The notes: generated by a model from the letters alone, not told the origin. 64,000 nt of DNA from Escherichia coli (GCF_003019035.1 NZ_CP027448.1); one strand, 5' to 3'; counted from the first letter of the stretch, positions 10,505 to 14,892 are shown. Numbers and translations: made by a program.

Positions 10505-11887
10505 ATGTATTTTAGATACAGGATTAAGCATGGACGTAAGTATGTTATGAAAAAGGAATATCTCTACAGTATTTCTGCTGTTATTTTCTGTATCTTACTC
10601 GGATTTGGTCTTATTATTATCAATAATGGAACTCCTTCTCCCCTTTCACCCGGACAGTACCACATTATAACACAATCAACTTATTTAATGATGATGGTGG
10701 CTTTATTTTTTATAGATATCATTGCTTTCCTCTTTATGCAACTTTATTTTATTTATGACCGAAATAACTTTTCGCATTGTATTCTTGGGCTGGCTTTCTT
10801 CAGTTGTATTATATATCTTGTTCTGACAATAATAATTGTTCAACAATACGAAAGTGATACTGTATCTGTAGTAAGCATACATAATTCAATCATGGTCCAT
10901 TATTTCTTCAGACAACTGAGCTTTTGCCTGATTATATATCTGGCATTGTGTGCCAGAAACCGAAGAAAAAACACCGCAATGATTGCCGGTAATAAAACGA
11001 TTTTTTTGATTTGTTTTGCCTGTATGATAATACTACCTGTAATATCATATCTGATTAGCCATCAATACTTCTTCCCGGGTATAACTGAAACTGCTTTATA
11101 CAAATTTGATTTTGTCCATATTGAAACATACATTAAATTTATTGTTTTTTTATGGCTGGGACTGGTTTTTTCGCTTTTTTATACCAGAGCGGTAAACAAT
11201 GATATATGGAAGGGGATATTACTGATTGCCATCTCGGCTGTTTTTTATAATGTTTTCGTTTTGTTTATTGTTGACGGGTATATGCATCTCTGGTATCTCA
11301 GCCGAATGGTAGAAATGTTCAGTAAATTAATTGTTGTTTCTGCTTTTATATATCACATATTTAAAGTTCTGCAATCAACAAAACAATTAAGCAACCTCGA
11401 CCCAATGACAAAAACATATAACAGAAATTTTTTCTTTGAAAAAATAAACGAACTTCTCTCAACAGGAGAAACATATTCGTCCGGTGTCTTTATTATTGAT
11501 ATCGATCACTTTAAATCAGTTAATGATACATGGGGACATCCTGCTGGTGACAGAGTCATTCTGGCTGTTGTCGATATATTAAAACAAGGCATCCGCGCAA
11601 CAGATATTCTGTCACGTCTCGGAGGAGAAGAGTTTGGCATTATTATTAATAATATGAATCCATCAAGAATAAAAATATTAGCGGAAAGACTTCGCAGACA
11701 TGTCGAAACCCAGACAAATAATACAACACTCTACAATATTCCTGGTGGGGTCACCATTAGTATTGGCGTTACTCTGATACGAGATAAATCACTTAACGCA
11801 TCTGATATCTATAATGCTACTGATAATGCCTTATATAAAGCGAAATCATCCGGGCGTAATAAAGTTGCCTTTTCAGAGATGGCATAA
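10505..11887 (+). CDS. Membrane-anchored GGDEF-domain diguanylate cyclase
   Basis: C-terminal GGDEF domain with intact RLGGEEFGI motif and IDIDHFKSVND block; N-terminal half is hydrophobic with about 8 predicted TM segments; AT-rich. Start may be the ATG at 10547. Confidence 0.8.
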   Translation: MYFRYRIKHGRKYVMKKEYLYSISAVIFCILLGFGLIIINNGTPSPLSPGQYHIITQSTYLMMMVALFFIDIIAFLFMQLYFIYDRNNFSHCILGLAFFSCIIYLVLTIIIVQQYESDTVSVVSIHNSIMVHYFFRQLSFCLIIYLALCARNRRKNTAMIAGNKTIFLICFACMIILPVISYLISHQYFFPGITETALYKFDFVHIETYIKFIVFLWLGLVFSLFYTRAVNNDIWKGILLIAISAVFYNVFVLFIVDGYMHLWYLSRMVEMFSKLIVVSAFIYHIFKVLQSTKQLSNLDPMTKTYNRNFFFEKINELLSTGETYSSGVFIIDIDHFKSVNDTWGHPAGDRVILAVVDILKQGIRATDILSRLGGEEFGIIINNMNPSRIKILAERLRRHVETQTNNTTLYNIPGGVTISIGVTLIRDKSLNASDIYNATDNALYKAKSSGRNKVAFSEMA

Positions 11888-12187
11888 GTCATACATTACA
11901 GGTATTCAACAGAATGTCAGTAACAGAACATATAATTTCTCATTCTTTATTTTCAGATTTACTTTCTGAGTTTCTGGCTGTCATCTGGTCACTGACCTCT
12001 CAGGAAAAGAGAGGTCTTACAAAAGACGGACAGACCTCATTTCTGCAACTATGAAAAAAGCTGCACATTACGCTGACAATCTACCAGACGGAGCGGTTCA
12101 ACAGGGAAGAATCTATGGTCACCCCCGTTTTTGCGTAACCGTCTCATTTAAACCGTCTTTCACCTCCCTTTCCTGTTTCCGATACTA

Positions 12188-12865
12188 ATGTCCCGCAGTA
12201 AAAGGACATTTAAGATGAATGCACGAAAGGCGGTACTGGCAGATAATCCGGAATTGATCCTGCGTGTGCTACAACTGAGATTTGACGAGTCACTGTCGTA
12301 CCCGCGCATTTCTGCGCAGACCGGTGTCAGCAAAACCGCCATTTTTTCTCTGGTGAGGCGATTTCACCAGATATTCGCTGACTGGCCCCTTTCCGGTGAA
12401 TCTTCCTGCATGCAACTGGCCCGGGCTCTTTTCCCGGGGCGATACCCTTCAGCCCCGACAGTAACTCAGACTGTGAAAACAGAGAAAAACCGCCGGAACC
12501 GATTTTCACAGGAGTTTAAATGGAGACTTGTTCAGCAGACTCTTTTACCCGGTGCCTGTGTCGCACAAATAGCTCGCGAGAACGGAATCAACGATAACCT
12601 GCTCTTTAACTGGCGGCATCTCTGGCGTAACGGCGGCCTGCAGCCGCCCGGCGAACATGAAACATCGCTACTTCCCGTGACGTTAACGCCGGAGCCGGAT
12701 AATAAAATCCCGGCACCAGTGCAGATACCTGAACAGATAAATACACTGCCAGACAGTCTGTGCTACGAGCTGGTTCTGCCGGCCGGAACTCTCAGGCTGA
12801 AAGGTGAACTGACACCGGCGTTATTACAGACACTTATCCGCGAAATGAAAGGGAGCAGCCACTGA
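12188..12865 (+). CDS. IS66-family accessory protein (orfA)
   Basis: 225-aa ORF upstream of and overlapping the TnpB-like ORF. Confidence 0.75.
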   Translation: MSRSKRTFKMNARKAVLADNPELILRVLQLRFDESLSYPRISAQTGVSKTAIFSLVRRFHQIFADWPLSGESSCMQLARALFPGRYPSAPTVTQTVKTEKNRRNRFSQEFKWRLVQQTLLPGACVAQIARENGINDNLLFNWRHLWRNGGLQPPGEHETSLLPVTLTPEPDNKIPAPVQIPEQINTLPDSLCYELVLPAGTLRLKGELTPALLQTLIREMKGSSH

Positions 12866-13212
12866 TGATATCTCTCCCTGCCGGTTCGCGTATCTGGCTG
12901 GTTGCCGGTATCACCGATATGCGAAATGGCTTTAACGGCCTGGCCTCAAAAGTTCAGAACGTCCTGAAGGATGACCCGTTCTCCGGGCATCTGTTCATCT
13001 TCCGCGGACGCCGGGGTGACCAGATAAAAGTGCTGTGGGCTGACAGTGACGGACTGTGCCTCTTCACCAAACGCCTGGAGCGGGGCCGCTTCGTCTGGCC
13101 GGTCACCCGCGATGGAAAGGTTCACCTTACTCCGGCTCAGTTATCTATGCTTCCTGAAGGTATCAACTGGAAGCACCCGAAACGAACAGAACGCGCTGGA
13201 ATCCGTATATAA
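12865..13212 (+). CDS. IS66-family TnpB (orfB)
   Basis: 115-aa ORF closely similar to the orfB at 1070-1417. Confidence 0.85.
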   Translation: MISLPAGSRIWLVAGITDMRNGFNGLASKVQNVLKDDPFSGHLFIFRGRRGDQIKVLWADSDGLCLFTKRLERGRFVWPVTRDGKVHLTPAQLSMLPEGINWKHPKRTERAGIRI

Positions 13213-13231
13213 CCCGTTGTAAAGTGAGGAT

Positions 13232-14802
13232 ATGGACACCTCACTTGCTCATGAGAATGCCCGCCTGCGGGCACTGTTGCAGACGCAACAGGACACCATC
13301 CGCCAGATGGCCGAATATAACCGCCTGCTCTCACTGCGGGTGGCGGCTTATGCTTCCGAAATCAACCGGCTGAAGGCGCTGGTTGCAAAACTGCAGCGCA
13401 TGCAGTTCGGTAAAAGCTCAGAAAAACTTCGCGCAAAAACCGAACGACAGATACAGGAAGCACAGGAGCGAATCAGCGCACTTCAGGAAGAAATGGCGGA
13501 AACGCTGGGTGAGCAATATGACTCGGCACTGCCATCTGCACTGCGCCAGTCTTCAGCCCGTAAACCGTTACCGCCTCACTTCCCCGAGAAACCCGGGTTA
13601 TCCGGCCGGAAGAGGAATGCTGTCCTGCCTGTGGTGGCGAACTCAGTTCTCTGGGATGTGATGTGTCAGAGCAACTGGAGCTTATCAGCAGCGCCTTTAA
13701 GGTTATCGAAACACAACGTCCGAAACTGGCCTGTTGCCGTTGTGACCATATCGTGCAGGCGCCGGTGCCTTCAAAACCCATTGTACGCAGCTATGCCGGA
13801 GCGGGGCTTCTGGCCCATGTTGTCACCGGGAAATATGCAGACCATTTGCCGTTATACCGCCAGTCAGAAATATACCGTCGTCAGGGAGTGGAGCTGAGTC
13901 GTGCCACGCTGGGGCGCTGGACTGGTGCCGTTGCTGAACTACTGGAGCCACTGTATGACGTCCTGCGCCAGTATGTGCTGATGCCCGGTAAAGTCCATGC
14001 CGATGATATCCCCGTCCCGGTCCAGGAGCCGGGCAGCGGTAAAACCCGGACAGCCCGGCTGTGGGTCTACGTCCGTGATGACCGTAACGCCGGTTCACAG
14101 ATGCCTGCGGCGGTCTGGTTCGCGTACAGCCCGAACCGGAAAGGCATCCATCCACAAAATCACCTGGCCGGTTACAGCGGAGTGCTTCAGGCCGATGCTT
14201 ACGGTGGCTACCGGGCGTTATACGAATCCGGCAGAATAACGGAAGCCGCGTGTATGGCTCATGCCCGGAGAAAAATCCACGATGTGCATGCAAGAGCTCC
14301 AACCGATATCACCACGGAAGCCCTGCAGCGTATCGGTGAACTGTATGCCATCGAGGCAGAAGTCCGGGGATGTTCAGCAGAACAGCGTCTGGCGGCAAGA
14401 AAAGCCAGAGCTGCGCCACTGATGCAGTCACTGTATGACTGGATACAGACTCAGATGAAAACACTGTCGCGTCACTCGGATACGGCAAAAGCGTTCGCAT
14501 ACCTGCTGAAACAGTGGGATGGCCTGAACGTGTACTGCAGTAATGGCTGGGTGGAAATCGACAACAACATCGCAGAGAACGCCTTACGGGGAGTGGCCGT
14601 AGGCCGGAAAAACTGGCTCTTCGCGGGTTCCGACAGCGGTGGCGAACATGCGGCGGTGTTGTACTCGCTGATCGGCACATGCCGTCTGAACAATGTGGAG
14701 CCAGAAAAATGGCTGCGCTACGTCATTGAACATATCCAGGACTGGCCGGCAAACCGGGTACGCGATCTGTTGCCCTGGAAAGTTGATCTGAGCTCTCAGT
14801 AA
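13232..14802 (+). pseudogene. IS66-family transposase (orfC), frameshifted near 13600-13660
   Basis: N-terminal piece 13232-13897 and the main piece 13663-14802 are in different frames; together they are collinear with the orfC at 1437-2983. Confidence 0.8.
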
Positions 14803-14892
14803 ATATCAATACGGTTCTGGTGAGCCGCTTACCCACAGATAGATTTAAATATCACGCCTTTTCATGGAGGAGGACTGAAAGGACAAAATGTT

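Follow-up and report, generated by a model that had tools for sequence, protein, structure and literature searches.

Not all E. coli strains carry the same c-di-GMP enzymes, and the biofilm behaviour of the O104:H4 outbreak strain has been connected with an acquired one, DgcX. A second extra membrane diguanylate cyclase (DGC), DgcY, was reportedly named by Povolotsky and Hengge in 2016. DgcX is a horizontally acquired MASE4-GGDEF cyclase of EAEC/O104:H4 (PMC4287979, PMC10459773); its gene sits at the edge of lambdoid prophages (PMC4287979) and has been reported from more than 1,150 strains (PMC10459773). The protein is active: its expression raises cellulose and lowers swimming in an A-site-dependent manner (PMC10459773; activity also in PMC4287979), and dgcX, although AT-rich and horizontally acquired, is expressed more strongly than any other E. 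coli DGC gene (PMC4287979). In CdgI (YeaI), a MASE4 N-terminus is reported together with an I-site that is intact (PMC5635695, PMC4287979). That plasmids and other mobile elements carry cyclase genes is well established (PMC10333796, PMC10672970); by the account given in PMC10333796, which cites Madsen et al. 2018, 6–10% of plasmids, mostly transmissible ones, carry c-di-GMP turnover genes.

The window analysed here is a stretch of 64,000 nucleotides from E. coli (GCF_003019035.1, NZ_CP027448.1). It encodes an IncFII RepA and FinO, together with a complete F-type tra region to which thousands of IncF plasmids match, and represents an IncF conjugative plasmid; the initial annotation had likewise called the DGC gene plasmid-borne. 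The open reading frame that this annotation reported (10505..11887, + strand, 460 aa counted from the first ATG) exists, and its start most likely lies 14 codons further downstream than reported. In all 21 aligned homologues, the protein begins where M15 stands (MKKEY/MEKDY), every RefSeq and GenBank annotation of a near-identical gene gives a length of 1341 nt, and a promoter-like site overlaps the upstream ATG; the true start is therefore most likely the ATG at 10547, giving a coding sequence at 10547..11887 (+) for a MASE4-GGDEF protein of 446 aa, whose residue numbering is used throughout unless the longer frame is named. The in-frame extension at 10505..10546 (+) has no counterpart in any homologue, is overlapped by the −10 hexamer and is probably untranslated. 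Under generic names such as 'sensor domain-containing diguanylate cyclase', the exact 446-aa protein is already present in NCBI, encoded on 22 contigs.

The promoter-like site, TTGACA-16 nt-TATTTT at 10486..10513 (+), is a consensus match only (10 of 12 positions), and a promoter scan gave fewer sites in the real than in the shuffled sequence; dgcT and the gene of P0002, the relative with 56% identity described below, likewise have a TTGACA upstream, at a comparable distance. A terminator scan found no convincing candidate 3' of the DGC gene, its single match falling inside the coding sequence, and neither a riboswitch nor any other RNA family turned up when 9000-12400 was scanned against Rfam (E<=1). 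Control by CsrA was considered on account of three short GGA motifs near the start codon that resemble CsrA-type leaders, and was set aside as lacking evidence. The GC content of the gene is 33.9% (GC3 30.6%) against 50.5% for the whole window, and the low GC3 indicates that the AT bias exceeds what the amino-acid composition of a membrane protein would bring about; the foreign origin suggested earlier from this AT-richness is supported. An uninterrupted C11 tract lies at 10337-10347, about 200 bp upstream of the DGC start. At this position island copies carry CCGCCCCACCC and sheep plasmids CCGCCCCCC, so that point changes made the homopolymer in the lineage of this plasmid and in p35A2a; the tract could be slippage-prone, and both C11 copies (the window and p35A2a) are equal in length.

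The GGDEF catalytic domain lies at 11393..11863 (+; residues 283-439, Pfam PF00990, 1.5e-43), matching profile positions 2-161 of 161 with 148.8 bits against a cutoff of 23.8 (residues 297-453 of the longer frame), and the NCBIfam model TIGR00254 agrees (144.3 against a cutoff of 37.4). The A-site GGEEF is encoded at 11621..11635 (+; residues 359-363, confirmed by translation) within RLGGEEFGI, and its columns are invariant or nearly so in family alignments. A phmmer search of the PDB aligned residues 257-444 with WspR, PleD, DgcZ, DosC, SadC and SiaD (best E 2e-27). Compared with WspR and other solved active DGCs, the metal-, base- and phosphate-binding positions are all kept: D318-I-D320-H-F-K323-S-V-N326-D327 (DIDHFKSVND), G330-H-P-A-G334-D335 (GHPAGD), G359-G-E-E-F363 and K433-S-S-G-R437-N (KxxGRN) are each present, and among 29 family members the catalytic motifs show little or no variation. 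An I-site, RATD (RxxD), lies at 11594..11605 (+; residues 350-353), separated from GGEEF by the five residues ILSRL and aligned with RSSD of WspR; chromosomal copies have RTTD at this site. The initial annotation had read the protein as a membrane-sensor diguanylate cyclase with an intact active site and had proposed looking for an I-site upstream of GGEEF. Alignment with the solved enzymes revealed no degeneracy in the A-site, the I-site is there, and domain matches together with conserved motifs support the overall assignment, suggesting that the gene encodes an apparently intact membrane-anchored enzyme that makes c-di-GMP.

The N-terminal part, for which about eight transmembrane helices and a MASE-like architecture had been noted, can be specified as a MASE4 domain from profile search, with eight helices by both hydropathy and structure prediction. 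The MASE4 integral-membrane sensor domain (Pfam PF17158) is encoded at 10670..11368 (+; residues 42-274, the TM2-TM8 region) and matches profile positions 3-238 of 239 (residues 56-288 of the longer frame) at 5.3e-34 and 118.1 bits against a cutoff of 28.4. Kyte-Doolittle analysis gave eight hydrophobic segments, and the AlphaFold2 model has eight transmembrane helices between residues 2 and 282 (2-27, 43-70, 75-100, 108-140, 146-172, 181-212, 219-241 and 247-282) at a mean pLDDT of 81.5, mostly above 80, the last of which runs straight on into the GGDEF domain. Positive charges (the N-terminal MKK, DR and RNRRK) are found on alternate loops, all on one side of the predicted bundle, which puts the GGDEF domain on the same, presumably cytoplasmic, side; both termini of the modelled protein would thus presumably be in the cytoplasm together with the GGDEF domain. 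R122, E256, N113, W203 and W249 are the conserved polar residues of the membrane part, R122 and E256 being invariant, and phmmer against the PDB found no solved structure matching the MASE4 part by sequence.

The protein belongs to a cluster of 467 member sequences at 98% identity, all from E. coli where a source is named. Its closest distinct relative is a rare E. coli MASE4-GGDEF protein, P0002 (WP_218072620.1), with 56% identity, followed by an E. fergusonii DgcT-like protein (44-45%), DgcT/YcdT of E. coli (41%) and a DgcX-like protein, P0043 (33%). P0043 was taken as DgcX-like because its GGEEF starts at residue 357 and lambdoid tail genes adjoin it; the published A-site numbering of DgcX, E359/E360 (PMC10459773), fits this position. 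A neighbour-joining tree groups the query with P0002 as the sister clade of DgcT and places DgcX at a greater distance. Among the best 150 matches in 1.84 billion proteins, there were about 15 full-length MASE4-GGDEF representatives at 50% clustering, so MASE4-GGDEF looks like a small family, and its named sources are only Enterobacterales.

The DGC gene was found at a DNA identity of at least 97.6% in 9 of 5,426 complete E. coli genomes (VG35A2, C5, PapRG-04-4, JNU, 1303, RM8082, CFIAFB20180511, AL.H8 and A30), eight times on the chromosome and once on a plasmid; to our knowledge, none of the nine is among the classical reference strains used by Povolotsky and Hengge in 2016. It is also present in 31 of 72,556 PLSDB plasmids. 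IncF plasmids of E. coli and E. fergusonii, sampled on UK sheep and cattle farms, make up most of these carriers; the rest came from cow, horse, baboon, food and water. The copies of the gene in E. coli 1303 and C5 are located in an island adjoining tRNA-Sec (selC), in the order tyrosine integrase, AraC-family regulator, TPR protein, DGC, EcsC-family protein, hypothetical gene, MFS transporter and phosphoethanolamine transferase, and the same block occurs in the 62-kb record CP057032.1. A literature search on the selC island of E. coli 1303 returned nothing. A 3.1-kb segment at 9019..12111 (+) is common to the window and the selC islands of 1303 and C5 (blastn 96.7%, 3096 nt), and it is all that the window shares with the island.

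The island AraC-family regulator is closest to YdeO and GadX, its match to the YdeO model (2.3e-53) being below that model's cutoff. The selC island, some plasmids and the 56% variant all have a YdeO/GadX-like regulator gene 5' of the DGC gene (9525-10283 in locus L002, 6529-7287 in L005 and 532-1269 in L009); it is absent from the window, throughout which tblastn found no homologue. The regulators of the island and of the 56% variant are 90% identical and the DGCs only 56%, suggesting either allelic replacement or fast divergence of the cyclase in a conserved backbone. A conserved functional pair of TPR protein and DGC was considered and rejected, as the 56% relative has no TPR gene and keeps the AraC gene; the conserved linkage is therefore that of AraC and DGC.

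In the window, the TPR-protein gene (9123..10162, +) is frameshifted into two open reading frames, 9123-9641 and 9584-10162. Alignment with p35A2a and the E. coli 1303 island showed that a 1-nt deletion at about 9557 splits it, changing ACAATCCTGAAG into ACAACCTGAAG; as there is no long homopolymer at the site, this is probably a real pseudogene and no sequencing slip. The gene is intact (346 aa) in p35A2a, the C5 selC island and the sheep plasmids, with a 1041-nt annotation in p35A2a and three further loci, and is annotated shorter, at 990 nt, in E. coli 1303. The DGC gene itself was intact, at 1341 nt, in all seven copies compared, which include five plasmid lineages. The dN/dS values were about 0.4-0.7, reaching 0.65-0.72 between close copies; these rest on 5-31 substitutions, and with so few they show weak constraint at best.

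The left boundary of the shared segment is an IS3-family element at 7446..9018 (−), annotated as an IS3 transposase in p35A2a, which replaces the AraC-type regulator gene. The right boundary is an IS66-family element at 12112..14833 (+, end approximate) with tnpA, tnpB and a split tnpC, whose overlapping open reading frames at 13232-13897 and 13663-14802 (+) encode 221 and 379 aa; since the counterpart in pRHB32-C18_2 is intact (1572 nt) and this one is split, the right-hand copy is probably inactive. A second IS66-family element lies at 342..2840 (+), beyond an autotransporter gene. The secreted protease noted beside the cyclase is this S6-peptidase (SPATE-type) autotransporter at 3339..7238 (−; Peptidase_S6 6.6e-92, GDSGS at residue 257). 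By its sequence the autotransporter looks chimeric: its passenger is Hbp/Tsh-like over residues 53-817 (PDB 1wxr residues 1-765, 1581 bits), whereas the other 480 or so residues, among them the C-terminal barrel (...GIRYDF), gave no match to a SPATE structure and hit only the generic barrel model TIGR01414.

The initial annotation had placed the DGC and the autotransporter in one IS66-flanked module, and this part of it did not hold. With an identity of only 71-76%, the flanking IS66-family elements are two different ones, an IS3 element lies between protease and DGC, and the 9019-12111 segment derives separately from the selC island. The two genes also occur apart or rearranged: NZ_CP062205.1 has the protease segment without the DGC, CP099011.1 has the DGC without an adjacent protease, and in the sheep plasmids an autotransporter gene of the protease's size is found past an IS66 on the opposite side of the DGC. 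An IS66 composite transposon carrying both genes was rejected on the same grounds, the differing IS66 copies and the interrupting IS3. The neighbourhood is an IS-mediated mosaic rather than one mobile unit. Elsewhere in the window, an F4 (K88)-like fimbrial cluster lies at about 17.5-24.7 kb, and about 4 kb past it an AT-rich pair at 28696-29836 (−) encodes a ToxR/PsaE-like winged-helix regulator (Trans_reg_C, 3.8e-13) and a PsaF-family protein (3.2e-17), which may be fimbrial regulators. On CP099011.1, genes for an EAL-domain-only protein and for an HTH protein lie about 7 kb from the DGC (1253-2885 in locus L004), so that a c-di-GMP synthase and an EAL-type protein occur together on some plasmids.

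Taken together, we consider it probable that the gene encodes an inner-membrane MASE4-GGDEF diguanylate cyclase, an accessory paralogue of DgcT/YcdT carried on the plasmid in an IS-bounded island fragment. In the predicted protein, the eight-helix MASE4 domain would be joined to the cytoplasmic GGDEF domain by a long helix continuous with TM8, through which MASE4 may gate cyclase activity upon a membrane or envelope signal. By analogy with other GGDEF enzymes, the two GGDEF domains of a dimer would condense two GTP to c-di-GMP at the GGEEF A-site, and output would be capped by c-di-GMP bound to the RxxD I-site. The native setting is the selC-integrated island with the AraC-type (YdeO/GadX-like) regulator gene upstream, of which the IncF plasmid holds only the 3.1-kb IS-bounded fragment, with no regulator and a frameshifted TPR gene. 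With the regulator gone and the TPR gene broken, expression would depend on the promoter-like site of the DGC gene itself, and the DGC may be poorly expressed or mis-regulated on the plasmid. If it is expressed, a larger c-di-GMP pool, more matrix or adhesin and less motility would be expected in the host, and the example of DgcX (PMC10459773) makes such an effect on biofilm and motility plausible. Sequence, domain content, motifs, topology and provenance come from the analysis itself; we infer enzyme activity, dimerisation, signal, expression and phenotype alike from the GGDEF family and from DgcX.

The loss of the regulator gene and the frameshift in the TPR gene also fit the main alternative account, that the gene is intact but idle plasmid cargo, captured by IS elements, deprived of its activator and TPR partner and transcriptionally silent, for example by being bound by H-NS, and so adds nothing to the c-di-GMP of the host. 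Very AT-rich DNA in E. coli is often silenced by H-NS, and the GC3 of this gene is only 30.6%; the IS3/IS66 patchwork around it, one element of which has a split transposase, and the high dN/dS between close copies point the same way. Set against these, the reading frame is full-length in all seven copies, five plasmid lineages among them, and a conserved TTGACA-containing promoter-like site lies directly upstream. The paralogue DgcX, moreover, is AT-rich and acquired and yet the most strongly expressed of the E. coli DGC genes (PMC4287979), and on balance we regard idle cargo as rather unlikely. A bolder account takes the AraC-(TPR)-MASE4-DGC cassette as a transferable c-di-GMP input module of livestock-associated Escherichia, in which MASE4 could act as a GPCR-like helical-bundle ligand sensor for a specific signal. 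The loss of regulator and TPR protein could then deregulate the cyclase in the plasmid lineage and couple plasmid carriage to adhesion, F4-like fimbriae and an Hbp-like protease being encoded on the same plasmid, and perhaps to conjugation efficiency too. As a whole, this account is doubtful, and we hold it to be quite improbable.

Two further alternatives were considered. A MASE4 architecture with an intact I-site is shared with CdgI/YeaI, which binds c-di-GMP (PMC5635695), and the protein might accordingly be a non-catalytic receptor or scaffold acting through the I-site and protein contacts; yet the A-site of CdgI, compared here by description only, is degenerate, whereas that of the plasmid protein is canonical GGEEF with all Mg2+- and GTP-binding residues kept, which makes a receptor very improbable. 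That the gene is an allele of a named enzyme, DgcT or DgcX, moved to a plasmid could be argued from the same domain architecture, the nearly same length and a weak DNA similarity to dgcT across about 150 nt. The identities of only 41% to DgcT and 33% to P0043, the separate clade in the tree and the genomic setting contradict it: the gene lies in a selC island or on plasmids, with neither a pgaABCD neighbourhood as an orthologue of DgcT would have nor a lambdoid prophage edge as one of DgcX would, and dgcT is separately present in about 4,150 genomes against nine for the DGC gene. Identity with DgcT or DgcX is thus refuted by sequence identity and context, and we give this explanation practically no credence. 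The reading we prefer remains that of an accessory inner-membrane MASE4-GGDEF cyclase, which would be product-inhibited and set in its activity by the MASE4 domain.

The architecture of the protein is ordinary and RefSeq already annotates it generically; it is an unstudied relative of DgcT and DgcX, and no published study of it was found in the searchable literature. It alters no concept in the field. Its gene moves between the selC island and conjugative IncF plasmids in ruminant-associated E. coli and E. fergusonii, and fits the pattern reported for GGDEF/EAL genes on plasmids generally (PMC10333796, PMC10672970); if active, it would be one more plasmid route shifting the host towards sessility. 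Some copies have the regulator and TPR partner and others lack them, which makes the gene a natural comparison for the study of MASE4 signalling. P0002, the nearest relative, has identical catalytic motifs, an AraC-type regulator upstream and MFS and sulfatase-family genes downstream, so that its locus is a variant of the same island; it differs in having no TPR gene between regulator and DGC and in a strongly diverged central TM5-TM7 region.

DgcT (YcdT) of K-12, the nearest characterised relative, resembles the plasmid protein in its MASE4 and GGDEF domains, which align end to end, its GGEEF, its RxxD I-site and the TTGACA-type element upstream, and is 452 aa long compared with 446 aa. In contrast, dgcT is divergent from pgaABCD and lies beside pgaA, is less AT-rich (GC 38.6%, GC3 40.8%) and is near-universal, whereas the gene described here is rare and mobile. 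DgcX is likewise accessory and horizontally transferred, has an intact A-site and I-site and eight predicted transmembrane helices, and is confined to Escherichia and not bound to one pathotype (PMC4287979, PMC10459773). The two differ in location, DgcX being found at the edge of lambdoid prophages and the plasmid DGC gene either in the selC island or, on IncF plasmids, between IS elements, and the latter is much rarer. The DGC gene is a further mobile member of the MASE4-GGDEF group alongside DgcX.
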